Assembly (NCBI GenBank): GCA_046563655.1
Contig: CM102286.1
Location: forward strand, 14,384,001 to 14,448,000
Source: Yuukianura sp. NJ FZ-2021
Lineage: Eukaryota
Length of the DNA: 64,000 nt
Reading direction: 5' to 3'
Made by a program: the position numbers and the translations under genes. Below, piece after piece: positions 2,549 to 55,543 of this stretch (position 1 is its first letter; each line of letters starts with the position of its first letter). The notes beneath the pieces were generated by a model, which was not told where the DNA came from, searched no databases, and worked only from the letters and a program-made list of their open reading frames with translations.

Positions 2549-3253
2549 CTGCTGCTCAATTAACTATAATCTAATTACTTCTGTTGTTAAAATATCCAAC
2601 AACGAATCTCTAGAGCACAGCTTACTATCTTACAACTTGATATTGATGGAATCTCTATTTATTAGTGTGAAATTACGGAACAATTTATTGAAATTATGAA
2701 TCAGAGCTTTTCCAAAAATCTAACTTATTCAAAATTCTGAATAAAAACTTCCATAGTTGTCCAACAATTGTCAATTTTTTTTTGAAAAATGGAAACGACA
2801 GTTTATCTAAACCGGGGTTCCGTTTTTCAAAAAAAAAAAGTTTGGAAAGTTTAGAAAAAGACAGTAACCAGAAGCCGTCTGGTTTCTATCGTTTTCTCGT
2901 ACGGTTTCTGTTTTAGACAAGATTGAGTTGGCCTCAATTCGACCAATTGAGTTTAATTAATCTAAAACGCAATGAATGTGAGAGTGACCTTGGCCATTCA
3001 AGAGGTCATTCTCATCGTTAAGGAAAAATTATTAGTATGTCAAGATAACTGCCGCTGACTTTAGATTAAACTTAACTTTTAAGAGCCTATGGCATGATTA
3101 GACTTGTCATTGTCACTTTGAGGAAAACCATTTGTGCTGATTGTGACACTCGAATTTTATTATGCTCAATTAATAATTTCATGACAGGGAAGTATAACAA
3201 GTGGACTCTTCATAATTTCTTCACAGTAAGAATCCAACTTAAGACCGTAACGA

Positions 3254-3327
3254 AACTATTCTCAAGTGGAATCAGCAAGGAAACCCCCGAAATGGGTTCA
3301 GTCTCCTCACATCATAAAAGAACAGTT
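3254..3327 (-). promoter_or_regulatory. SECIS element, eukaryotic type II, in the SelW 3' UTR
   Basis: Minus strand reads aacuguucuu-uu-AUGAU-gugaggagac-ugAA-ccc-auuuc-ggg-g-guuuccuugc-UGAU-uccacuu-gagaauaguu: 10-bp helix I, UGAN/NGAN core, 10-bp helix II, unpaired AA, ccc/ggg mini-helix. It starts ~78 nt after the stop; AATAAA at 3156-3161 (minus). Confidence 0.92.
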
Positions 3328-7412: not shown

Positions 7413-7857
7413 TTAGGTTTGTGGCTGTGTGCAGCACTCACTTTGAAATGCTGTGCAGCAACATTGTTCCGGTGGATCGGGAGATCAGAGTCGTTTTCCA
7501 CTTCGCACACCACCACATAGGCCACCACACTCAGGAGGGCAGGATCTCGGGTCTTCGCATGCGAAAGGCGGTGGAAGCTCAATGTTTCTTCCAGCGTCGC
7601 GGCCTTCACCGCTGCTGCGTCCAATGCAAGTACACTTACAAGTTGTCCCGCGTTTAGCCCGATTCAGCAGCCCGTTCAGGTTCAAAGTTCCCACAGATTT
7701 ACTTTCACTGCCGAGAGCTTCGCCATTGACAAAAACATTTAGCGCTACCACTGAAAGTTCAAAAAAAAAACCTAAGCCAAACTTTTTTTAAAAAAATTAA
7801 AAAGGAGTGATACGAACCTCCACTAAAGACGAGCAACAAAATTTCCAAACGAAGCAT
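7413..7857 (-). CDS. Cys-rich secreted prepropeptide, copy 1; in-frame UGA at 7485-7487 truncates it (possible pseudogene or single-peptide variant)
   Basis: Exon 1 MLRLEILLLVFSG; exon 2 VVALNVFVNG...NRAKR-GTTCKCTC...GVRSGKRL*SPDPPEQCCCTAFQSECCTQPQT*. Homology to copies 2-4 continues past the UGA. Confidence 0.75.
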
Positions 7858-8335
7858 GATGGAATCCAAGCAAATGCAGACTGATTCAAAGAAAGTGTGC
7901 CACCGCCGCGGTTTTTATTCCACCAAATCCAGCCATTGTTCCTTACGACACAATTGCAGTGAAAGTCGTTGACCGCCTGGAACAATTATTGCTGTTTAAA
8001 ATTGTCTCGTTGAATCCGTTTTCTAAAAATTTGGAAAGTTTTTATACGACAATGGATAGTACCACTGGAGCTGGATTTTTTTTTCAAATTAGAAACATTT
8101 TATTTCAATGATGCTTTTACAATGATAATAATCAATTTTTTTTTCTTTGAAAAATGAGGCACTATAAAAAATTCAAAAAAATACAGTGAGCGCCGCCCAG
8201 CCCTCCCTCCTGAAACTCATAAATAAACATTAAATATTTATCGAAGTGTCTACTTTTTAGTGGACCTCACTGTATTTTATATACAAAAATATTTGAATTG
8301 ATTATGTTTCAATTACATTTTATTCGAATTGGTGT

Positions 8336-8778
8336 TTATGGTGAGCAGCACTCAATTTGAAACTCTGTGCAACAACATTGTCCGGGTGGATCTGGACATC
8401 CGAATCGTTTTCCGCTGCGCATGACACATTTTCCAGCCTTCTCGCACATATCAGGGCAGGAATTGGGATCGTCACACCACACTGGAAGTACAAAGCCTCC
8501 TCCAACTGGGATTCCACCGCTGTTGACGAAACCGCTGCTCCTTCCAGTGCAAGTACACTTACAAGTTGTCCCGCGTTTTTCACGTTTTAGCAATCCATTC
8601 AAAGCTCCCGCCGATTTACTTCCTTTGTAGAACGGATCTCCATTCACAAAAACACTCAATGCTACCACTACTGAAAGTGCAAAAAATTTTTAAACTAAAT
8701 ACAAAATTTTCAAAATAAAGAAAAAGAGAACGACGTACCTCCGGAAACGACGAGCAACAAAATTTCCAGGCGAATCAT
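8336..8778 (-). CDS. Cys-rich secreted prepropeptide, copy 2
   Basis: Two exons: MIRLEILLLVVSG|VVVALSVFVNG-DPFYKG...KREKR-GTTCKCTC...CVMRSGKRFGCPDPPGQCCCTEFQIECCSP*. Signal peptide, furin site and 13 Cys in the mature region. Confidence 0.85.
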
Positions 8779-9350
8779 GATGGAATCTAAGCGAACCCAC
8801 AATGATTCGAAATTGTACGGCCACAGCGGTTTTTATTCCACCAAATCCAGCCATTGTTCCATACGACACAATTGCAGTGAAAGTCGTTGAGAGCCACGAA
8901 CAATTGCTGTTTAAAATTGTTTCGTTGAATTCGTTTTCTAAAACTTTGGAAGGTCTGGAATCTGACAATAGGTGCCACCGAGTATCCGCAATGTCGCAAA
9001 GTTTTTGAAATTCAAAACATTTTAGTCAATTTCATCGATGCTTTTGTATGATAATTAGGGCTGTTTTTTTTTAATTGGAGAAATTTTTGTAAGGTTTATG
9101 AACTTTTAAAAAAATTGTTGGACTATGATTTTAGGCCTCACAGTTTCTCCAAAAATTTTTTTTCTGGAACAGATAATGCCGAGAATTGTGAAGCAGAATT
9201 TTTTTTCCTCTCGTTTTTTTTGCTCACTTAACAATTTTTGTAAAAACAAAAAGTTGGTATTCTTTTGTTTTATTTATTTTATATAAAAAAAGATTTGAAT
9301 TATATTTAATCTGGATTATATTTTAGTTGAATTAGGTTTAAGCTGTGTGT

Positions 9351-9767
9351 TTATGGTGAGCAGCACTCAATTTGAAATTCTGTGCAACAACATTGTCCTG
9401 GTGGATCTGGACAGCCGAATCGTTTTCCGCTGCGCATAACACATTGGCCAGCAGCTTCACACGCAGGAGAGCAGGAAAACGGATCGTCGCATCCACCGCC
9501 GCCGCCGCCTCCAGCACCGCCGCCGGCACTGCGTCCAGTGCAAGTACACTTACAAGTTGTACCACGTTTTTCACGTTTTAGCAACCCGTTCAAAGCTCCC
9601 GCCGATTTACTTCCTTTGAAGAACGGATCTCCATTCACAAAAACATTTAACGCTACCACTGAAAGTTCAAAAAAATTTTAACCTAAATATAACATTTTCA
9701 AAAAATTATAAATAGAAAGCGACGTACCTCCGAAAACGACTAGCAGCAAAATTTCTAAGCGAAGCAT
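9351..9767 (-). CDS. Cys-rich secreted prepropeptide, copy 3
   Basis: MLRLEILLLVVFG|VVALNVFVNG...KREKR-GTTCKCTCTGRSAGGGAGGGGGGGCDDPFSCSPACEAAGQCVMRSGKRFGCPDPPGQCCCTEFQIECCSP*. Same intron position as the other copies. Confidence 0.85.
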
Positions 9768-10352
9768 GATGGAATCCAAGCAAATCCGAACTGATTTGAA
9801 AGTGGGCGACCACCGCAGTTTTTATTCCACCAAATCCAGGCATTGTTCCATACGACAACAATTGCAGTGAAAGTCGTTGACCTCCAACAACAATTACTTT
9901 TGAAATTGTTTCATTGATATCGTTTTCTAAAAATTTTGAAAGTTTGGAATATGACAATCCATGCCATACTGGACTGAGTATCCTCAATGTCACAAAGTTT
10001 TTAAAATTCAAAACATTTTAGTCAATTTCATTAATCCTTTTATATGATAATTACCGCTGTTTTTTTTTCCAAAAAATTGGAGAAATAGTTGTTATGTTTA
10101 TAAACTTTAAAAAAAATTTTTTTTTTGGAGTATGATTTTAGGCTTCACAGTTTCTCCAAAAATTTTTTTCTTTTGATATTCCGAGAATTGTGAAGTAGAT
10201 TTTTTTTCCTTTGCTTTATTTTCCTCACTGAACAATTTTTGTCAAAAAAAAAAGTTGGAACTCTTTTGTATTATTTATTTTCTATAAAAAATATTGCAAT
10301 TATATTTCATTTCAATTACATTTTATGTGAATTTAACTTTGTTACTCTGTGT

Positions 10353-10804
10353 TTATGGTGAGCAGCACTCAATTTGAAATTCTGTGCAGCAACATTGTCC
10401 TGGTGGATCTGGACATCCGAAACGTTTTCCGCCGCGCATAACACAAAGCCCAGCAGCCTGGCATGCAATAGGGCAAAATTTCGGATCGCTGCATGTAGCT
10501 GGAGTAACATCGCCTCCATCTCCTCCTCCTCCTCCTCCTCCTCCTCCTCCAGCACTTCGTCCAGTGCAAGTACACTTGCAAGTCGTCCCACGTTTCTCAC
10601 GCTTCAGCAACCCGTTCAAAGCTCCCGCCGACCTAGGCTCTTTGACAAACGGATCTTCTCCATTGACAAAAACATTCAACGCTACCACTGAAAGTTTAAA
10701 AAAAAAACTGAGTACAAATTTTTGAAAAAATAGTAACCTAACAACAAAAATATTTTCAAAAACGAACCTCCGCAAACGAGCAACAAAATTTCGAAGCGAA
10801 GCAT
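10353..10804 (-). CDS. Cys-rich secreted prepropeptide, copy 4
   Basis: MLRFEILLLVCG|VVALNVFVNG...KREKR-GTTCKCTCTGRSA(G)10DGGDVTPATCSDPKFCPIACQAAGLCVMRGGKRFGCPDPPGQCCCTEFQIECCSP*. The poly-Gly is encoded by a (GGA)n microsatellite. Confidence 0.85.
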
Positions 10805-11339
10805 GATGGCAGATCGACGCTGATGCGACAGTCTGCTTCCGCAGCGCTTTTTATGTCCTGCGGAATCTGACCTTGCTCTGCATTACACAATTGTTAGAGA
10901 AAGTTGACCTCCAACAACAATTATTGTTTGAAATTGTTTCAATGATTTTGTTCTCTAAAAATTTGGAAAGTTTTTCTACGTCAATGTACCACTGGGGCGA
11001 GTTATACGTCATGCTAGAATTCTTTTAAATTTAAACAATTTTAGTGAGTTTCATTAACTCTTCAGATGATTTTTTTTTCTCGAAAAATGAAATCGTAGTT
11101 AGGTTTATGAACTTTTAAAAATTCGTGGTGTGATTCCAGGATTCAAGTTTTCTCGGAAAAAGTTTTTCTTTCTGAAACGGATTTTCAGAGAATTTGGAAT
11201 TGCGCAGTAGCACTGCAGTTCTTGTTTGTTTTTTCTTTTCTTTGCTTTATTTTCTCCACTTCTGACAGTAGTTTGGACAGTTGACGACCTGAAGTGTGGA
11301 CGTCAAGACGTCAAAAGTTCCGTCCAAAACTTCTGCGTC

Positions 11340-14300
11340 ATGAAAATGTCCATTGGTCAGAATAACGTCTATGTCCATTCCAATCCACCCAAAGGTAAAT
11401 TTGTCAACAAAATTTTATGAAACTAACTAAAAATTAAAAATAATGTAAAAAACAAAAAAAAAATTTAAATTCCAGTTGTAAAAATTCTTGTTCCTTAATT
11501 TCTGAAGCGATTTCGGGGTCTGGAGCAGCGATTCGACAATGGGTGAAGACTGGTGATGTGGAGAAGCTAGAAAAGCTCGTTTTAGAAGGTCAAGGTGCAC
11601 GACTGCTTGGAATGGTCGAATCTTCACAGGATCCAAAGGTCAAGTCATTTCTGAGGTCAATTCCAGGCTACATGGCCAAGGTCGACCTCATTCACGACGC
11701 AGGTATGGCCCAATTTTATGAAATTTTGAAATGTTTGATGAAAAATAAGGGAAATAGCGTTTAACTTTACGAGAATGCTAAGCGTTCTCGCTGGGACGTC
11801 GCCCTGACCAGTTCAACCTTCATTAATCACAACCGGATACATATTTTTTTGAGAACAAAAATTAAAAACGAAATGGTTAATAACACTCTGATATGAAACT
11901 AATGAACTAAGGGCAATTCGTATAAGTCTTTGCTAGGAGTGTATTTCAAAAGCCAAAATTTTTCAAAATTAGTATTAAAACGTGGTTTTTGTTCGTTTTG
12001 TGTAGTAATTCGTGGGTCACTTCGTGAAACACAGACGCTGATTGACAAGAAAAAATTGGCCACTGCTCGAGACGCCGTGGGCCGCGGCGTAGGTCACAAA
12101 GCAGTTATTTACAACAATAAAAGCATTCTGGAGTGGCTGGCCAAAAAACATCCAGAAATTTTTAACCTCAAAGACAATGTAAGTAAAAAGAAATTGCAAA
12201 AAAAAATTACAGAAGAAAACTATTTTTTTTCAAAGCTAAAATTATAAGGTTAAGGTTTTAATGATAAAGTAAAATTAAGTTATCAAACGCCAGAAAAGTA
12301 GGTTTTTCCGGCGGCATATTTTTGAATTTTTTGAAAGTAATGAAACTAGGGCTCCTAAGTTAGCAAAATTTAATTTCTAAATTCCTTGCTTTGCATTTTT
12401 TTTTCGCGAATTTTTTAAATTCGCGATGACTTTGTACACGTCGGATTCCACCAATGAATGTAAAAGTTCGTTGGCGTGATGTTTGGTCATCAAATATTCA
12501 AAGTGCTCCAGAATCCATTTCCAATCATCGATTTTCCTGTCGTTTAATCACAAAGTTCCGAGAACCTGTGCAAAAAAGACGTTTGCAAAAAATATTTGCA
12601 AACAACGTTTGGAAAAGGAAAGCTCCAAGGACAATTTGCTTATTAATGAATCATGGGAACAAAATTGACAAAAATCCAAACTGTCCCCAATCGCTAATGA
12701 ACCTCACGTGGAAAAAAAAATTCCGGGTTAAAAAAATGGAGAAATTGACATTTCGAACTGAAAAAATTGACATTTTTATTTTTAGATTTGGTTAGGTTAT
12801 TAACCTAAACATTATTTATTTATTATTGTTTATTACATATTATATTATTATTATTATATTATGTTTTTGTGTAGGAGGGTCGGACATGTTTGCACTACGC
12901 TGCTGCAAGTCGTGACCCGGATGAAATGTATGACCTCTTGGTCAGCCTGGGGTCAAATCCAGAAATCATTGACATGCACGGACGAAAACCGAACTACTAC
13001 ATAGCACATCCAGAGGAACTGGACATTGAAGGACCCACGACACGATCACTTTCACGTGGAAAACGCAGACGCATCTCACCCATTTCTCCTCCAAAACGGA
13101 AATTCCTTGGTGAGAAATTTCAAAATTTTAAATTTTTTTGAAAAATCAACATTTTACTTATTTTCAAAATCGAACACTGCTTTTATCGTTTCATCGAACA
13201 ACTTAAACCGCGGATGTACATTACATAAATACGGAACGTTCAAGGCAGTTCGCACTGTCCAAAAGGTTTATAAGAGTGCGTGTTATACAAAAGGTGGAAG
13301 AAGGTTCGAAGTTCAGTTCGAACACATGTTCGAATAAGATTTTTGCTCGGTTGTACAAAGTCGAATGTGATGAATGTGATTCTACGCTGCGTTTTATACA
13401 AAACTATTTCCGATATGAGTTTCTATACAATGCACTATACAATGCACCGCACTATACAATGATTTTCTTAATTTTTTTTTCCAAAATCCGTTTCTCACCT
13501 GATTTCAACTCTCATTTGTTTCTCGATTGTTCTCAAATTTTCAAACATGTTGATTAAAAAAAATATCGTTTTTTCAAAAATATTTATAAAAAATTGACTT
13601 TTTTTTTGATAACATAGTTTCTCCACCATCAATTACTCGAGCCCAAATTCGAATTTGGATCCATGAGAAGGATATTCCTAAACTGGAGAAAATCGTTTGG
13701 TCAGGACACGGAGACAAATTGCTGCTGGAAACAACAAACAATGGGAAAGTGCGGAGATTTCTGGAGAATGTGCCTCACCTCCTGTCAAGAATTAAATCGA
13801 TTCATGGAGCTGCAATCAATAATGACTTGGAAGGACTCAAGGTGAGTCACACACTCCTGTCATGTCCTCCTTTTTGAAATTGGCGCCATTCCAAAATGAG
13901 TCCACTCCATGTCTATCCACCTTCTCATTAATTCATTCCCACTCTTTCTGGAGCATCGACCACCAAACACTGAATTCACTACACGAAAAGAAAGCTGGAA
14001 CTGCTTCTACATTTTCTTTCCTAAGAGAAAGTGACACTAATCGATAACTATTTAGTTATCGATTAGTGCAAATATTTGACTATTTGATGTTTATTTTTGA
14101 ATGTCTGAATTGTAACTCTTAGGAAACGAGAACAAAAACAGAGTTGAAGGAAATGTTCAAAGCTAAGGACCTCCATGGACTCACGCCTCTGCACAAAGTA
14201 AGACTTTTTGATGCTCCTATAAAGCGCCCCCGAGGCGCGAAAATGTTCAAACTCATTCAAATTTTATGAAAACAAAGAAAAAAACACAAAGTTAAACAAA

Positions 14301-17300
14301 AATCTATCTTCCTGGAACTGGAAAAAGTTTTGTCTTTCGAACGAATTTCATTTTAAATTTTTTCCATTCTGCTAATTTTTTTCTAATATTAAAATTCGCA
14401 CTATGTTTATATGCGCTTGTGAGGCATGAACAGTGTGAAATTCAAAGGTTTTAAAATATTTAGGAGTTTTTTTTAATAAAAATTTTGAAAACTTTTTTGA
14501 CCTTGATTTTTTGTGTGAAATTTTGAAAAGGCTGCTGGACTTGGAAACCGTGGAATCATAGAATTTCTATTGTACGAAATTCCGGATGCTATTCATGAGC
14601 AAGACAATGACGGGAGAACTCCACTTCACTACGCCGCTCGTGACCCGAATGTCTATGCCTTTCTGGTCAAGGACGGTGCTGACGAAAATGTGATCGATAT
14701 GGTCAGCTTTTTAATTGCTCCATTTTCAAAAAGTCAATAATTTTCTAAAATCAATAGATTTTTAGATAAAGACGGCCATAAACCAAAATTTTGGTCTAAA
14801 TTTTGAATTTTCTTTTTTTTTTTTTCAAAAAATTTCAGAAAGGAAAAACTCCTGCGTACTACCGACAGCATCCGCTGGAACTGGACACACGCCACCTTCG
14901 CAATGTCCCCGATGCTCCACGAGTTTCTGGAGAACTTTCAGGGTGGGACCGAGCCAGCCCCACCCTGGTCGTTGGTGGGAAACGCCGAACTTCGAGTGGA
15001 GAATTTTCAAATGAAGCGACACCTACTGGAAAGTATGAGCTGAACAATGTTGAACTTAGTGCTGGTGACCTGCGTGTGGAAGACATTGACTTTGCTCCGG
15101 CCCCACCCAAGGTCATGTCACGCAACCAATCACGAGAGGAGATGCAAAGTACCGAATCGGTGGCGGGATCCAGGAATGTTTCCCGATCCGGATCCAGAAG
15201 TGACTTGGAGAGGAAGATTTCTCGGAGTTCGTCACGTGGTGGAGACTCCAAATCAGTTTCGCGGGCAAATTCGAAAAATGAATTTGGTGGGGAAGTAGTT
15301 GGTGGGGCTTTGGCGGGAGAAAGTGTGGCTCTGGAGGATGCATTTTTTGATAATCCACCAAACGAAGTTTTTGAAGAGCCAGAACCAATGGAGGAGACGC
15401 TGGAAGAACAAGTTCCGCCGATTGGTTTAGCCGATGGATCGGACGAAGTTTTTGAAAACGAAGCAGAAGCAGGAGAAGAAAATCCGGAGATGCTGGAAAA
15501 CGCTGATGCTGCTGAAGATGAAGTTCGTCCTGACTCGGCAGTTTCAGTTCGGGCAGCAGAAGAAGCCGAAACGCTACAAGAGGAAATTGAGCAGATCGAA
15601 GATGCTGCGGAGGTTACTGACGAAGTACTTGAAGCAGAGGTTATCGAAGCTGAAGAAAATGCTGCAGCAGCAGAAAATGAAGCAGAAGTCGTTGCTGAGA
15701 TGACAGAAAATGAAGTTGCTGAATCGATTGCAGAAACAGAAATTGCAGACACGGAAACTGATGTTGCAGAAAATGTCGCAGAAGTCGAACCAGAAATTGC
15801 AGAAGATGTCGCAGAAGTCGAAGCAGAAATTGCAGAAAATGTCGTAGAAGTCGAAACTGAAGTTGCAGAAAATGTCGTAGAAGTGGAAACTGAAGTCGCA
15901 GAAAATGTCGTATACGTTGAACCTGAAGTTGCAGAAAGTGTTGGAGAAGTCGCAAATGACGTCGAAGCTGAAACTGCAGTAGAAATGGCAGAAGCCGAAA
16001 TCGCTGGAGCAGAAACGGCATTGGCTGAAGTTGAAGCTGACGCTGCACCAATCGCTGATTCCGAAGAAACAGCGAACGATGGAATTGAAGTAATTGTTGG
16101 AAAAATTGAGGAATTGGCTGACGTTGAAGCAGAGGGCAGTGGACCATCACTTATGGATGACCTTGACGCCGAGCCAGAAGAGGTCAAGGGGTCAGAGGTC
16201 AACGACCTCGACGGAGCACTTCTGGATGACGTGGAAATTGCACTTAAGAGAGGGTAATGACCTCAATTGATTCAAAATAAAAATTTTCCCGCCAAAAAAT
16301 CAATTCGATTAATTTTTTTTAACTTAAGTGACATGGAAACCCTCGTGACGACGATGCTGGACGGAAAAGGCGACGAACTTCTGGACAGGACTTCGGACAA
16401 TCCCGCTGTCCAAGAATTCTTGTCACATGTTCCGGGATACTTGGTATGTTTTCAAAATTTTGAAGAAAATTTAAAGTCATTTTTGAAAATTTTGGAAATT
16501 TTAAAAGTTGAAATTTAATTCTGAAAAATTTTAAAGGTGAAAATCCAGAATATTCACGCTGCGGCTAGAAACGGAAATTTGCGTGACCTTCAGACTCTGT
16601 TGGATCGAAAGCGATTGGCTCTCGCACGTGACAAATTGGGGCGTGGCCCACTGCATTTGGCTGTTTTGCACAATCATACAACCGTTGCACGTCATTTGGC
16701 CAGTGCATATCCTCAAGTATGTTTCAAAATTTCAGAAAATTATCATTTTTGAAATTTGGTTTTTTGAAATTTTATTGCTATAGTCCATGAAGTTGTTGGA
16801 CGCCAAAGGCCGGTCACCTCTGCACTATGCTGCGACGTTGCCAGATTCCGGTTCGATGTACAAGTACTTGGTGAACCTTGGAGCCGATCCAAACAACCGC
16901 GACATTGACGACAACACGCCAGGAATTTACTTAAGAAACCGTGACCTCTTGACCCAGAAAGATCTGCTGGACGAAGCCGCTCAGCTTGGAGCTCCCCTCG
17001 AGCCGATATCTCCAGTCCAACGCTGGGAACGCCCCAAAACGCCTTCAGGTGAGTTGACCTTTGACCTCTGTTGACCTTTGACCCAAGTTTTAGAAATCCA
17101 AAAGTACAAAAGCATGTACAAAGGGGTTGAACCACCCAAATGTAGAATCCACTTTGGCAACACTGGAAGCCTTCTACAACACAACTCTCATGAAAAAGGA
17201 GTCTCTGTGGACCAAAGCTTGGAGACGCCTCACGCACCAATCAGAATCGAGCTTCAAATCTCTTGTTAAAAAGTACTTGGACAAACCGACCTTTGACCTC

Positions 17301-20300
17301 ATCAAGTTTCGCGGAATGAGTGACGGCTCGTCACTCCTCGACGTTGTCAAGTTTTATCCGCAGTTTTTTATCATTGCCCCGGGCGAAGAGGCTTATGACG
17401 TGTATCAAGAGCTGTTCGTTCCGGCAATTGTGGACCACAATCGAATCGAGGGATACTTTCTCGGGAAAACGAGCATTTTGGGCGGTAATTTTCAAAAATT
17501 TACAATTTTTTGAAATCTCTAAATTTTGATTTATACATTTTCTGTTTTCTAGATCGGCTGGAAGAGGTGGCAATTCCGCAAGTTGACCCTCCGAGCAAAT
17601 TTGTGACGCAAGTGAGACTTCGCGTTAGTCGAAACATTCAGCCATTTCCGTTTGTACCGCAAATGAAAAAAGAAGATTTAGTCAAAGTTGCAATTTTGCT
17701 AAAAACTGTGAAATTGAATTGGCCTTGTTACGATCTTGAGTCACTCGAGAAAGAAGTTCTGGAAGATCTCAAACAGAGATGCTGGATGCCAGAGGTAAAC
17801 TTTTTTTAAATTCAACGTTAACAAAAGTTTAAAAAAAAAGTTTTTGGAAACACGACTTCGGAAAAGTTTTTTAGTGTTTTTTTTTGGCACCGAAGCTATG
17901 ATCATGATCATCATAAGCCATTCGAATTGTACAAATTTTAATTCTTCTCTTGTTTTTTTTCTTCAAAATTTGAATTTCAGGCGACAAAAATTTCACGTCT
18001 TTGGCCCAAACAGCGTTACTTTGCTTTGAGTGATGACGGGAGTGTTCAAGTGTGGATGAACGCTGAAGATCACTTGGATATCGTCGTGACCTCGAAATAT
18101 GGAAAGCTGTTTCCAATGTTTCAGACGCTGAATGACCTCTACACTCTCTACAACCGAACGTTCAGTTTTTACGAAAATCCGCAATTTGGATTTCTAACTG
18201 TTGACCCCTTCCGGGTCGGAACAGGAATCAAGGTCACTGATCAATTTCAAAATTTTAAAATCTGCAATTTTCGGTAGTATGCCATTTCTCCGAATGAAAT
18301 CCTCCTAAGCGAATTTTTCCGAAACCAATTGCTCCAAAAGATAATTCTCCGAAATCAAGTAAACTTAGCCTCACGTGCTTTCGGAATTTACTTTTCGGAG
18401 CAAATGGGTTCGTGATAACTCATTAGGGGTAATGCGTTTCGGAAGAATTCATTCTGAAAAATGGCATGGAACACCGCACTGCACTTTTCTATCGAAACTG
18501 GAAATTGTGATGATAAAAATTATAATTTTTTTTTAATTTGTTTTCCAGATTACTTTTCGAATTCGCCTGCCTTCGTTGATGCGGGACCAAGCTGAATTGA
18601 GTCGTCTCTGTTCCATTCACAATTTGTCCATTCGTTGGAAACAGAGTCGCATTGAAACCGACGAGATTGACCCCTCTGATTGGATTGAACTTGAAAATAA
18701 CGTGACCTTAGGGAAATCAGAGCTTGACCTTGCCATCGACATGGCCAATTCAATTAATCAATTGATTAAGGCCGAAGAACAGAAAGCTCGGCTCCTTATT
18801 CTTGCAGAAAAAGAAAACAATAAAAAATAGAGATTAAAAACAGCAATTTTGGATTTCTAAAACTAAAAAATCAACTAATCTAAAAAAAAACTTCCAAACT
18901 ATTAACCAAAAAAATTAACTTTTCTTGAAATGTTTTTTTTTTTTGAATTTCAGAAGATCAGAAACGGAATCGGTTTCCCGCCATTTGGTCTGAAGAGGGC
19001 AAGTACTTAGCATCAGTCCTAGGAGATGCCTTGGTCAAGGGCCTTACTGAAGTGAGTCAAGAGCGACCACAGGACCCTGTGGAGTACTTGGCCAACTTTT
19101 TACGCAAGTATCACGGAGACAAGGAAGAAGACGAAGGATTGGTCAAGGACAAGGTTTGTTGACTTTTGATTCGTTTTAACAGGTTGGGTAATACCTCATG
19201 TTTTTTCAATTTTGCAAAAAAAAATCTGTTTGTGTTTTTTCGTGTTTTTTTGTCAACAATAAGTGAGGTAGTACCCAACCTGTTAAAGAAAATTCACTTT
19301 TCGTTGTCCAGGAACCTTGGGTCAAGGACGATGCTTCACCGGTCATGGTTTCTGATCCCTCGACCTTGACCCCCGAGGGGTCAGGGGACCAGCCAATGGG
19401 AGGAGAGGGGGAGGCGGAGGAGTACGGAACAACTCAAGCTTTCCCCACGGAGGCAGATGACCTTGGGTATGAAGGTCACGATGACGATGGCAATGAGTCA
19501 GATGACTCAGAAGAGATGATTCGTCGCCTTGACGACGAGGTGGACGATGCAATTGAAGCTGTGGACAAAGAGGAGCAGGAGGAAGAGGAGCGCCATCTAC
19601 GAGAGCAGCAGCAGATGAGAGACGACAAAGGTCAAAGTGTTTTGCATTTTGCTGCAAGCAGACCTGGCGGAGGTCAAACTATTTTTTCGTTTCTGCAAAA
19701 TCCGGCAGTCAACTTGGCTTGGCGAGACGACAAGCTCAAGACGGCTCGTGACGTGGCAGAAGAGGCGGGGCGAATTGAGAACATCATGAGCATTGACTCC
19801 TTCGTGATTAATTTGGCTACACAAGGTACGACACGAAACTTAATTAGCAGGGTTGCCAAAAATATGCACTAAAAACCCTCGAAATATGGACAAAAAAAAA
19901 GAATGTTTTGAAAAAATTGCCCAAATATTTACACATTTAACATTAAAGGGCATGGGTAAATAAATAAATATTTGGTAACAGAAACATAAATATAAGACTA
20001 AATGTTTTTATTAAGATTACGGGCCCTGGAGACTAAATATGTTTGACATCCCTGCTCATTAGTAGAATTAAGTTAATTTTTGCTAATTTTTTTTTTGGGT
20101 CAAAGGTCAACTTGAGACACTCCAGAAGTTGATGTTGGACGGGTATGACCATTTGACTGATATTTCGGATACATCGAAAGTAAACATTCTTGAACTGACG
20201 ACAATTCAGCCTTCGGTAGCAGCTTTTCTGCGGACAGTGGACGACTTCACGGACAAAATTTTGCGACTTCATAGAGCCATCCGGTTTGGAAATTTTGAAC

Positions 20301-20815: not shown

Positions 20816-21621
20816 AAATCGTCTTCGAAGACACTTTTTAGTGTCAATTCTTTAGTGGGCTAATTTATTCCAAAGTTTTAGCCTGTTCGTAAAAAAAAAT
20901 ATTCTGTGACAAAAATCGATGCTTTGCCTTAGTTTCAATTAGGTTGACCAATTTGGAAATAACTATTCAGCATAAACCTGCAAGTATTAAATTTCAAACA
21001 ATTTAGGAACTTGGAAAATAAAAATTATTTGAGCCATGACTTGGATTTTGAAAATTTGACATTAAGGAATTATGGAACAAAAATTTTTCAAAAACTAAAT
21101 TTGAATGACATTTATAGCTAATCTATGGTTAGTAACGCTAAAAATTTTTTCTTCTCTCCGCTATCTACCGGGATATTTTCGAACTACTAAAATTCAAATT
21201 TTGGGCGCGGAAAATTAATATTTTGAAAACAAAAATGTAAACAAGGAAAGGAAATAGAAACTGTCAAATTTTTATCTTGTGTCGTTGACCTCTTGACCTT
21301 TGTTCAGCGGGGTTTTGTTGTATTTTTGGTAAGTTGTGTACATATGCTGGAACTGGAATGACGAGATACTTGGACAACTGGATGAAGATTGAAGGGATGG
21401 AACGGTTAGCGAATAAATCTAATCAGAGAACGAATTTGTGTGAGAGACATTTGATTGGCTGTTTTTGTTCATTTTCAGGTGACATACGAGCAGTTGAACT
21501 TGACATACCGGCCTAGCCGTACAGGAAGTCGGATCTGGTTGGAACGTTATCAAATCTGTTGTCTCATTGGTTGTCATTCTGATTTTGAGAAGTACTACGA
21601 AGGTCGTACAGGAGTAGGACG

Positions 21622-23592
21622 ATGCATGTGGAAATACTACTGCTGCTACTGGTCTACTTAATTTCCGATGCACTGGCATCTGGGGACGTGACGGTCAAGG
21701 TCTTCGGAGATGGTGATGCATCTAAAGACGTGTTTCCAGTAGCTTTTACAGACTACGACGGGGATAAACGGACCGACTTAATCGCTCTTACCAAGAATCT
21801 CTCGTCATTTCGTATTTATTTTGGTCATTCAAAGTCACCTTCGCTACGATTTCTACCAGAGTTCCAATGTGATATTGTCCTTAGTCGAAAAAGTCAAAAG
21901 CTACCTCAGATAACTGGAATCAATGTGGCGGATTTCACTGGAGACGGAGTCAACGATATCCTTGTTAGTTACAAATCTGCCGATGATCAAAGGGAACCTC
22001 CAGATACGTTTGTATCCATTTTCAAAGGGGGACTGAACAAATTAACGTGTGAACTACTTCTTCTCAATGGAACTTCCACATCAACTGTTGAAAATACCAG
22101 ACTAATACTCAAAGGGGAACCGCTAATTGTTGATGTCAACGGTGACATGATTGCTGACTTGGTTGGGGAGACGGCCACTAACAAACGGAAGATCTGGACA
22201 TTTCGACATGACGAACAACCTCCCATTGTGACTCCGTTTCAATGCAACGGTGAATGTCCACCTATCAAAACCGGGGGATTTGTTGACATCGATGGTAAAA
22301 CTAAACAACTCATTTCATTCAATCCAAGTGATAAATTGAAACTAAAGTTGAAAATTTTTGTAGGTGACTTTACTCCCGACTTGGTTCTTGTCACTGAATT
22401 GAGTCTGAATGTCACGGCATCCCGACATCGAGTGGACATCTACACCACCGTGATCACGGATCGTGGCCAGGGAAAATTCAAACTTCGTCAGACCATAACC
22501 ATTGACTTTCCAATCGGTCAACTAGGAAGTGCCTTATTTCTGGACTTGGAGCAGTCTGGTCAAGACCACTCAATTATCCTTCCATTCTGTCCAGACAAAT
22601 CCTGCAAAACGGGTGACTTCGCACTCGTGGACGTCAAGACTGGCCAAGTTCGTCAGCTAAACGTTCCATTCCGGGACAATTCTGGCTCCACTTGGTCATT
22701 TCTTCCACCGTCTTTCCAGCCCGCCTATCTACAAACAATCAACGTCCGTGCCGGTGACTATAATTTAGACGGGTATCCAGATCTTATTGCCACTCTTTTC
22801 AAGAAAACTTCATCAGGAACAGAAACCAAGTCAGTTTTGTTCAAGAACGTTCCATGTCAACGTCAAGGTGGCGGTTGCTCCTACCCGCGAACTTTTGAAC
22901 CAAACTTTGCCCTTTTGAATTCCTACTCGGACGTACTGTCTACTGCCTTCTACGACTCTAATGAAAATGGTCTGTTAGACATTATGGGCTTTCGTCGTAC
23001 TTCCAACTCCAGTGGTCAAAATGCAACTTATTCCATCTTTGTCCAAGAGAACTCGCCAGAATATGATGCCTACTTTGTCCGTTGGATTATCATCACTGGC
23101 CTCTGTGACCAGAATTGTCCTGGATACGGTGTGATGCTGCCTGGAGGAACAATGAAGTACAGTACAATGGATGCCAATTACAAAATGCAGTCTAGCAGAG
23201 CTTCCCAAGTATTCAGAACTGGATTTGCTTTGGATCTTCCTGGAAGTTTAATGGGAATTGGCCCTTCAGCTAACTTTATTGACACGATTGTGTTCGGTGG
23301 GACACTGGGCGGTGGGTCAACGTCCAACTACTCCAGAAATCAGATCATACCGAACTCCAATCTGATTGCGATTCCTTGGCGGAGGGATGGAAGTAGCGGG
23401 AAGATCAAGTGGGAGATGAAACAAATTCTGAGGCCTAAAGATGGCGGAATCATGGCCACTTTTCATGTGCTGCTGCTCATTTGCTTCCTGAATGCTTCTT
23501 TAGTGGTGTATCTTCATATGAAAGAGAGGAAGAAGGACAGGATGGAGAGACACAATGATCCAGTGAGCATGAGTGCTCTCACGATGACATAA
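21622..23592 (+). CDS. ITFG1: T-cell immunomodulatory protein / LINKIN (FG-GAP repeat type-I membrane protein)
   Basis: Signal peptide; FG-GAP-like motifs (AFTDYDGDKRTDL, ADFTGDGVNDIL, DVNGDMIADL, GDYNLDGYPDL); YDAYFV and QIIPNSNL; C-terminal TM followed by LHMKERKKD. One 69-nt in-frame intron at 22295-22363. Confidence 0.9.
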   Translation: MHVEILLLLLVYLISDALASGDVTVKVFGDGDASKDVFPVAFTDYDGDKRTDLIALTKNLSSFRIYFGHSKSPSLRFLPEFQCDIVLSRKSQKLPQITGINVADFTGDGVNDILVSYKSADDQREPPDTFVSIFKGGLNKLTCELLLLNGTSTSTVENTRLILKGEPLIVDVNGDMIADLVGETATNKRKIWTFRHDEQPPIVTPFQCNGECPPIKTGGFVDIDGKTKQLISFNPSDKLKLKLKIFVGDFTPDLVLVTELSLNVTASRHRVDIYTTVITDRGQGKFKLRQTITIDFPIGQLGSALFLDLEQSGQDHSIILPFCPDKSCKTGDFALVDVKTGQVRQLNVPFRDNSGSTWSFLPPSFQPAYLQTINVRAGDYNLDGYPDLIATLFKKTSSGTETKSVLFKNVPCQRQGGGCSYPRTFEPNFALLNSYSDVLSTAFYDSNENGLLDIMGFRRTSNSSGQNATYSIFVQENSPEYDAYFVRWIIITGLCDQNCPGYGVMLPGGTMKYSTMDANYKMQSSRASQVFRTGFALDLPGSLMGIGPSANFIDTIVFGGTLGGGSTSNYSRNQIIPNSNLIAIPWRRDGSSGKIKWEMKQILRPKDGGIMATFHVLLLICFLNASLVVYLHMKERKKDRMERHNDPVSMSALTMT

Positions 23593-24993: not shown

Positions 24994-45972
<20,979 letters not shown>

Positions 45973-54260: not shown

Positions 54261-54420
54261 ACTTCCAACACTTTGTGAGAATCTTACGAATTAAATTCCG
54301 CATTATTATACGAACTCAATTTATTTAATAAGAGACTTTTTTTTTGCATAAATGTGAGCTTCAGGGCTCACACGGCTTCAGAGACAAAGAAAAACCGTGG
54401 AGAAAAATTAAAGAACCAAG

Positions 54421-54930
54421 GTGCTTAGTGCTTAGTGCGCAGTGCTTGCGCAGTGCGCAGTACTTGCGCAGTGCGCAGTGCTTGCGCAGTACTTGCGCAG
54501 TGCGCAGTGCTTGCGCAGTACTTGCGCAGTGCGCAGTGCTTGCGCAGTACTTGCGCAGTGCGCAGTGCGCAGTGCTTGCGCAGTGCGCAGTGCTTGCGCA
54601 GTGCGCAGTACTTGCGCAGTGCTTGCGCAGTGCTTGCGCAGTGCTTGCGCAGTACTTGCGCAGTGCGCAGTGCTTGCGCAGTGCGCAGTACTTGCGCAGT
54701 GCGCAGTGCTTGCGCAGTACTTGCGCAGTGCGCAGTGCTTGCGCAGTGCGCAGTGCGCAGTGCTTGCGCAGTACTTGCGCAGTGCGCAGTGCGCAGTGCT
54801 TGCGCAGTACTTGCGCAGTGCGCAGTGCGCAGTGCTTGCGCAGTACTTGCGCAGTGCGCAGTGCTTGCGCAGTGCGCAGTGCTTGCGCAGTGCCTAGTGC
54901 TTGCGCAGTACTTGCGCAGTGCTTGCGCAG
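54421..54930. repeat. GC-rich composite satellite of 7-mer GCGCAGT and 11-mers (G/A)CTTGCGCAGT
   Basis: About 510 bp built only from these units in irregular order, with TGCGCA palindromic cores. Confidence 0.95.
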
Positions 54931-55543
54931 TATATGCACAGCATGGCCGCATTTTGCCCCATTAGTTTCCTATTTTGTTCAGAAATTAATTGAATCATTA
55001 ACTATTTCGTTAATTACTTTAATAAAACACAACAAAAATGGTGTTGTGTTATAGAAAGTTTGAAAACTTTGCCACCTGAAAATAAAAGGAGCATTAAACT
55101 TGTCACATTTTTAATCAACATAATACATTGTTGTTGAAGTATTTAAATGTGGCATGTAAAAATGAGTAATCCGATGATCACGTTCAGGTGAACCGGATTT
55201 ACAAATCCACCGCTCAAGATTATATTATGTATACCGTTCACGGATTAGTGTGATCCTGACCCCCGGATCGGTCTCACCAAATCCTGATCCGTAGGTTACG
55301 GGTGAACCGTCATTATGTATACGGGCAATAAAGGTTACCAGAGAGGCACAGTTACAGTTAGTAGCCGTGTTGCCTGGGTTACTTGATCAGCTGACATCGA
55401 AATATCAACAACAGTGGCGCATTATTTTCTTAGATTTTGTAGTCAGTCGCAGTTAGTTGCAGTCTCGCAGTTAGTTAGTTGCGATTGAGTTGTTCTGTAT
55501 TCCAGTTAAGTCAATTTTCAATCAGATTTGTCTTGTCAGAAGA

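Follow-up and report, generated by a model that had tools for sequence, protein, structure and literature searches.

A tandem array of four genes for cysteine-rich, putatively secreted two-peptide precursors in Yuukianura sp. NJ FZ-2021

The 64,000-nucleotide (nt) stretch of Yuukianura sp. NJ FZ-2021 analyzed here (GenBank assembly GCA_046563655.1, contig CM102286.1, positions 14,384,001 to 14,448,000, hereafter the window) carries on its minus strand a tandem array of four genes, each predicted to encode a secreted, cysteine-rich peptide precursor. An initial annotation had described four duplicated units of about 1 kb with common upstream sequence, and this description is borne out: the start-to-start spacing is 914–1026 nt, and the 250 nt upstream are 73–85% identical between copies. 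Each gene has an intact-looking structure of two exons, with a first coding exon of 37–40 nt, a phase-1 GT..AG intron of 67–80 nt, and a second exon that holds the rest of the frame (Table 1). Copies 1 to 4 encode precursors of 101, 124, 115, and 123 amino acids (aa), respectively, and up to a GKR motif near the end of the frame the coding regions differ in length by whole codons only. Protein, pattern, and promoter-DNA searches of the genome (98.7 Mb, 22 contigs, the window being on contig C4) returned this four-copy cluster only, the promoter-DNA search recovering three of its four upstream regions. A codon pattern for CCC-x6-CC matched the genome 377 times and was uninformative, the 100 matches listed being mostly TGT/TGC-rich simple sequence.

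Table 1. Features of the four-gene array, in window coordinates.
Copy	Feature	Position	Strand	Remarks
1	TATA-like element	7912–7918	−	ATAAAAA
1	Coding exon 1	7818–7857	−	signal peptide start
1	Intron	7751–7817	−	67 nt, GT..TTTCAG, phase 1
1	Coding exon 2	7485–7750	−	to TGA stop
1	RAKR	7650–7661	−	
1	Peptide A	7500–7649	−	50 aa, 7 Cys
1	GKR	7491–7499	−	
1	In-frame TGA	7485–7487	−	one codon past GKR
1	Decayed peptide B region	7413–7490	−	
2	TATA-like element	8830–8836	−	
2	Coding exon 1	8739–8778	−	
2	Intron	8671–8738	−	68 nt; tandem acceptor, second AG 3 nt on
2	Coding exon 2	8336–8670	−	
2	REKR	8573–8584	−	
2	Peptide A	8414–8572	−	53 aa
2	GKR	8405–8413	−	
2	Peptide B	8339–8404	−	
2	TAA	8336–8338	−	
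3	TATA-like element	9819–9825	−	
3	Coding exon 1	9728–9767	−	
3	Intron	9659–9727	−	69 nt
3	Coding exon 2	9351–9658	−	
3	REKR	9564–9575	−	
3	Peptide A	9429–9563	−	45 aa
3	GKR	9420–9428	−	
3	Peptide B	9354–9419	−	
3	TAA	9351–9353	−	
4	TATA-like element	10848–10854	−	
4	Coding exon 1	10768–10804	−	
4	Intron	10688–10767	−	80 nt
4	Coding exon 2	10353–10687	−	
4	REKR	10590–10601	−	
4	Peptide A	10431–10589	−	53 aa
4	Linker, pure (GGA)10 run	10521–10550	−	codes poly-Gly
4	GKR	10422–10430	−	
4	Peptide B	10356–10421	−	
4	TAA	10353–10355	−	

The N-terminus of all four precursors is hydrophobic (best 11-residue Kyte-Doolittle mean 2.9–3.35), in agreement with the signal peptide first proposed, and the furin-type site RAKR or REKR sits, as had been claimed, immediately N-terminal of GTTCKCTC, where it ends the propeptide. 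The seven Cys of peptide A and the GKR that follows it are likewise present in every copy. The Cys spacing of A is 1,1,(16–24),5,3,5 in copies 2–4 and 1,1,22,5,3,3 in copy 1, and a CxxxC pair recurs in all four together with a Gly two residues before the last Cys (G39 and C41 are invariant in alignment A5). Peptide B is 22 aa long with Cys spacing 6,0,0,6,0, and thus has vicinal CC and CCC groups. Its six Cys (C-CCC-CC) and its identity in copies 2–4 hold as described; its presence in all four copies does not, because copy 1 codes for no peptide B. A and B together have 13 Cys in 70–78 residues, and the odd Cys number remarked on earlier is real, both for A (7) and in all (13). As unmodified linear peptides, A would have a calculated mass of 4.1–5.4 kDa and B one of 2.36 kDa, compared with 6.8–8.1 kDa if the chain stayed uncut.

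The central segment of A had been called a hypervariable loop. It is indeed unalignable between copies, but is better read as a Gly linker, being poly-Gly in two of them; the proposed origin by GGA expansion applies to copy 4 only (10 pure codons), whereas the poly-Gly of copy 3 comes from mixed codons. Because the segment is unalignable and has decayed to poly-Gly, it probably serves as a flexible spacer, at least 12 residues long, rather than as a recognition loop. An invariant G-R-S stands right before it in all four copies (7614–7622, 8537–8545, 9528–9536, and 10554–10562, minus strand), and may form a turn or else mark a single-Arg cleavage site, from which a short amidated N-terminal piece would be released.

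Copy 1 departs from this plan in its C-terminal part. A peptide B had been assigned to it, but its frame ends at an in-frame TGA one residue past GKR, and position 7413, given as the start of the cluster, is actually the stop of its decayed frame. The B region is still recognizable; its first Cys is gone, a short deletion has removed the ancestral stop, and the frame stays open for 23 codons beyond the TGA with five Cys retained. All seven Cys of A and the GKR are kept. An Rfam search found no selenocysteine insertion sequence (SECIS) behind copy 1 between positions 3324 and 7600. A SECIS_1 match at window positions 3257–3324 (minus strand), behind a neighboring small gene, reached 32.3 bits (gathering score 35; E=0.0014) and served as the positive control; the genome appears to use selenocysteine. 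A scan by regular expression and folding gave one candidate behind copy 1, which lies inside the decayed frame and folds weakly, at −5.3 kcal/mol compared with −17.4 for the control. The TGA most probably acts as a true stop, and copy 1 looks like a natural A-only gene that supports the modularity of A and B. Since it has lost B while retaining A, it also suggests that peptide A works on its own.

The comparison of replacement and silent changes between copies, which the initial annotation had proposed in the form of dN/dS (nonsynonymous over synonymous rates), was run as the corresponding ratio of proportions, pN/pS. Its values are 0.18–0.26 in all six pairs for the pooled alignable non-B blocks, the alignments omitting the loop and a few codons before RSGKR as unalignable. 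Among copies 2–4, all 4 changes in peptide B are silent and none is a replacement (p=0.001 versus neutrality), which indicates that B is conserved by selection and not by recent copying alone. On the copy 1 branch, the B region has 6 replacement changes (including the stop) to 2 silent ones in 20 codons (p=0.45 for neutrality), and the signal, propeptide end, N-terminus of A, and RSGKR together have 3 to 9 (p=0.0004). The replacement density in this copy is 0.122 per site in B versus 0.029 in the conserved non-B blocks (Fisher p=0.03). Had the whole gene been dead since the decay of B, about 12.7 replacements would be expected in the non-B blocks; three are observed (Poisson p=0.001), and the A half has therefore been under constraint after the loss of B. 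Within RSGKR, copy 1 shows 2 changes, both of them silent and none a replacement, which is what an amidation function of GKR for A would predict. The two-peptide design put forward at the outset thus gains independent support from copy 1, where B is lost while A and GKR stay constrained, and this constraint appears to be the best evidence both for that design and for an amidation role of GKR.

No family had been recognized for these peptides, and this is confirmed with Pfam, the Protein Data Bank (PDB), two large protein collections, and the Atlas. Pfam has no family for exon 2 of copies 2 and 3 and none for any of the seven mature segments; the Atlas gave one match at 0.75, under its usable range, and none in a second search. 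Word-index protein searches returned 1, 2830, and (for longer proteins) 1 candidates, none of which scored, and the single match from a profile search of 1.84 billion representatives was rejected as a tandem-repeat protein without the Cys framework. Pattern matches were confirmed in neither metagenome contigs (0 of 87, with 0 exact matches to a peptide-B pattern) nor viral contigs (0 of 64). Among 78 from prokaryote genomes, two passed tblastn and were rejected, one because it is read antisense to a long repeat-protein gene, the other because it has only the seed word in common. Literature searches found no description of this peptide family, and one short supplementary file of PMC4770511 (8,023 characters, too short for its precursor set) has none of four motifs. 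Lineage restriction is judged here from the protein collections and from this genome, the one eukaryote genome sequence searched. The Cys frameworks of A and B matched no known family in these searches. Tandem arrays coding for secreted, Cys-rich precursors of several peptides are well known as a general kind.

Peptide A has several features in common with the cysteine-stabilized αβ (CSab, or cis-) defensins of arthropods, namely a signal, a propeptide, a basic cleavage site, and the elements C-x5-C-x3-C, GxC, and CxC. CSab hallmarks, according to the available portion of PMC5234102, are Cys-X3-Cys on a helix, Gly at −2 of the fourth Cys, and Cys-X-Cys. Disulfides 1–4, 2–5, and 3–6 together with antimicrobial activity further characterize these defensins. 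Compared by spacing pattern and not by sequence, copies 2–4 also have the C-x3-C-x5-C spacing and the CxCxC triad of xibalbin 4, a remipede CSab peptide with the pattern xCx12Cx3Cx5Cx5Cx5CxCxC (PMC5577568, in part). The same excerpt, however, states that CxC must come after CxxxC, whereas the CxC(xC) of A is N-terminal to CxxxC, separated from it by the linker of 16–24 residues. A further differs from CSab defensins in having seven Cys, in not being cationic, in being followed by a second peptide, and in giving no significant sequence or profile match. Only if the chain stays uncut could the CCC of B supply a C-terminal CxC, and copy 1 lacks that CCC. PF01097 matches none of the seven mature segments; its eight matches in the genome all lie off the contig of the cluster. 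HHalign places C-x5-C-x3-C of A in register with defensin-like modules of this genome at a probability of 1–2%, and Smith–Waterman alignment with Cys fixed put one of three such modules above shuffles (p 0.01–0.03, aligned across GKR) and the other two at p 0.1–0.75. With CxC ahead of CxxxC and no significant profile match, A was not classified as a defensin. The defensin-like modules themselves have an extra Cys (C-x3-CC) and are apparently of two tandem types (L054:1066–1599 and 2646–3073, plus strand; L055:806–1614, plus strand); their cluster is on G000 C3 near 14.58 Mb, and another defensin-like frame is in L053.

Two AlphaFold runs place the sole helix of the mature part at CxxxC of A (predicted local distance difference test, pLDDT, about 35–55). 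Foldseek and VIA-align gave no match to the second model, which is uninformative on the fold. As a speculative proposal that we consider unlikely to be correct, A may be a circularly permuted CSab core, in which the N-terminal CKCTC strand would replace the CxC that normally follows the helix and reach the helix via the long Gly linker. The old C-terminal strand would then have become the amidation and cleavage site that releases the CCC/CC peptide, and the spare Cys would join A either to B or to another A molecule.

An alternative to separate peptides is that the precursor, once cut by furin, remains one uncut disulfide domain (or two chains joined through several disulfides, like insulin), in which the end of A and B would make up a CART- or defensin-like core, with GKR as a basic loop on its surface. 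In the PDB, the mature profile matches CART (1hy9) best, aligned across GKR with 12 identities in 35 columns (E=0.34) and with the same C-x5-C, R-x-G-x-R-x-G, and C-x2-F-x3-C. A trimmed profile has 1hy9 as its sole match at E=0.12, a value obtained once the query had been cut down to the region that matches. Alignment across GKR is also seen for the one defensin-like module above shuffles, although the other two of the three are at chance level and the HHalign probabilities are as low as stated above, and the first AlphaFold model has strands, at low confidence, in the N-terminus of A and in B. CART (PF06373) resembles our precursors as a secreted precursor with basic processing sites and through this weak likeness over the end of A and B. 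In the part of PMC13364575 considered, it has six Cys in bonds I–III, II–V, and IV–VI and a gene of three exons, of which the last begins with the first Cys, and CART-like sequences are reported in chordates only, with no arthropod in the species rows of that part. Four or five of its six Cys align with ours, the fourth never, and our precursors have four or more Cys in addition. The fourth Cys, the CxC, and the three-exon layout of CART have no counterpart in the cluster, where each gene has two exons and its only intron lies in the signal peptide; our precursors have 13 Cys, CART 6 (PMC13364575 and PMC4195273, both in part). PF06373 is silent on the copies and has no candidate anywhere in the genome, in a search without a positive control. 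The resemblance (E=0.12–0.34) is at chance level and was not accepted, since peptide A gives an equally good E with an unrelated chain. Copy 1 is under constraint without B, which also speaks against the uncut domain. On balance, we regard the uncut domain as unlikely.

The granulin repeat (PF00396), which we take to be a 12-Cys motif with four CC pairs, is similar in overall length, in its C-x5-C-P start, and in its later CC pairs, only two of the four vicinal pairs having counterparts in our sequences. It was rejected, as HHalign gave 9% over 2 columns, alignments with Cys fixed gave p 0.09–0.33, and PF00396 finds the granulin of this genome on C3 and not the cluster. That granulin gene (L005:892–1704, minus strand; G000 C3 near 14.35 Mb) apparently has few repeats spread over several exons.

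If the two peptides are released separately, the product could instead act on a receptor, as a neuropeptide or paracrine hormone specific to the lineage, which seems to us rather improbable. A signal, an amidated peptide, GKR, and a Cys-bearing C-terminal peptide make up what is presumably a common arthropod prohormone layout, and inotocin/neurophysin and AKH/APRP, which we take to be such prohormones (amidated peptide, GKR, Cys-bearing associated peptide), share with our precursors the order of parts and the processing signals; neutral charge and an invariant B would also fit a ligand. Unlike those prohormones, our precursors have an A peptide of 45–53 aa with seven Cys after a propeptide, and there is no sequence likeness. 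Four diverging tandem copies with a free linker would be unusual for a hormone, and no relative occurs in the large protein collections, whereas the neuropeptide precursors in PMC4770511, as far as the available text goes, are nearly all common to non-pterygote hexapods.

Still less probable is a secreted structural or cross-linking component (of cuticle, cement, or an egg or spermatophore coat), in which Cys and the Gly linker would build a disulfide network. The odd Cys number, the vicinal CC and CCC, the poly-Gly linker, and the near-neutral charge would suit such a role; small size, the lack of internal repeats, and the retention of an amidation-type GKR after the loss of B speak against it. 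An extracellular, metallothionein-like metal-binding peptide with reduced Cys, one of the readings first suggested, is very improbable. It could draw on the CxCxC, CC, and CCC clusters, the high Cys density, and the acidic B, and is weakened by the secretory route, which oxidizes Cys, by the lack of a Pfam match, and by the absence of the metal response element (the motif being as we assume it) in the 330 nt upstream of all four copies. Moreover, metallothionein is a small cytosolic Cys-rich protein in the portion of PMC5716537 considered, unlike our four copies with their signal-like hydrophobic N-termini. Finally, decoding of the copy 1 TGA as selenocysteine, or readthrough to a variant B, can be dismissed as extremely improbable in spite of the SECIS_1 match behind the neighboring gene and the open, Cys-bearing frame past the TGA, given the lack of SECIS behind copy 1, the weak folding of the one candidate, and the neutral-like rates in its B region.

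From the observed copy number, gene structure, motif conservation, and pattern of selection, we infer expression, processing, fold, and role as follows. The array would be a lineage-restricted tandem family of secreted prepropeptides, each gene being transcribed from its own promoter. A signal of 23–24 residues would be removed, with a probable cut after VNG, whereupon a furin-type enzyme would cut at RxKR and a prohormone convertase after GKR; a carboxypeptidase and an amidating enzyme would then yield C-terminally amidated A (45–53 aa before trimming) and free acidic B. A would be the indispensable product, composed of a fixed N-terminal CKCTC strand, a Gly-rich linker of little sequence importance, and a C-x5-C-x3-C...G-x-C block, probably with three disulfides bracing a short helix and with one Cys spare. 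B would be a strongly conserved yet separable companion (a second effector, a folding helper, or a disulfide partner) that copy 1 has lost. The separate release of A and B is, in our judgment, probable. Genes for defence peptides typically occur as tandem duplicates that vary in the core, and because of the tandem duplication, the orphan status, and the variable core, the likeliest role is that of a non-lytic host-defence or body-surface effector; given separate release, a defence role is narrowly favored, and the conjunction of the two is somewhat doubtful.

Several observations weigh against this proposal. The defence role and the processing are both read from sequence, GKR does not conform to the furin consensus and might be a turn on the surface, and the last Cys of A in copy 1 stands at x3 instead of x5, as would fit an A that has lost a partner in B. 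The selection counts are small, RSGKR comprises five codons, changes were polarized by the majority among four paralogues, and the contrast between copy 1 and copies 2–4 in B alone has p=0.03 one-sided and 0.06 two-sided. The AlphaFold models, with mean pLDDT of 45.4 and 44.4, are unusable, and the set of CxC and CxxxC..GxC, chosen after seeing the sequence, arises in 2–4% of shuffles of A. In the alignable part of the A core of copies 2–4, pN is 0.27–0.34 versus pS of 0.45–0.59, which shows selection that is apparently relaxed, not positive. A carries a net charge of 0 to +1 and B one of −3, unlike most antimicrobial peptides. The toxin or antimicrobial reading of the initial annotation therefore finds no direct support in either the charge or the alignable part of A; neutral charge and the lack of positive selection make a classical lytic peptide less likely and would still be compatible with a hormonal or structural role.

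Upstream, the minus strand of the window has ATAAAAA followed 22–30 nt on by TCA(G/T) at four places, one before each copy, and the plus strand has it once, elsewhere. We take these to be TATA-like and initiator-like motifs, and they stand at matching spacing in all four copies, the initiator-like TCAG of copy 1 lying about 30 nt past its TATA-like element; as the pattern was taken from the copies themselves, it would speak for conservation, not function. AACAAT is found on either strand 2–5 times per copy upstream (8779–9060, 7858–8100, 9768–10050, and 10805–11100, minus strand), CTTTCACT lies about 105 nt 5' of the ATG in copies 1–3, and AGGTCA occurs upstream of copies 3 and 4; these shared motifs resemble what we take to be Sox, Blimp-1, and nuclear-receptor sites. 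The kB consensus, as we assume it to be, is absent upstream of all four copies. The upstream region of copy 4 is the most diverged, with 32 private changes versus 6–12 in the other copies, and this copy may be regulated differently.

The cluster is flanked by a phosphomevalonate-kinase-like gene (weak Pfam match) on one side and a plus-strand gene from about 11.3 kb on the other, and the adjoining genes are of animal type. An N-terminal ATP:guanido phosphotransferase (arginine-kinase-like) domain at 17094–17513 (plus strand) lies inside an apparent large ankyrin-like gene at about 11300–20000. Farther along the window are an ITFG1-like gene in one 667-codon open frame, probably with a short in-frame intron (21589–23592, plus strand), and a large multi-exon gene with immunoglobulin and kinase-like domains (27725–44660, plus strand), presumably obscurin/Unc-89-like, with low-complexity tandem repeats at about 31310–31945. 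A tandem repeat at 54330–55050, open in several frames on both strands, is probably a minisatellite.

The array offers two Cys frameworks for which no family was found, CxCxC-linker-C-x5-C-x3-C-x5-C and C-x6-CCC-x6-CC, in peptides short enough for synthesis and structure solution, with copy 1 as a natural B deletion for comparison. If A is not a permuted defensin, the cluster is one more orphan array of secreted peptides, mainly of concern to those who specialize in arthropod peptides. Should A prove to be a permuted defensin core, the family would represent a disulfide topology that is new, copy 1 being its built-in A-only variant, and would point to a route to new disulfide folds and to a loop-tolerant scaffold.

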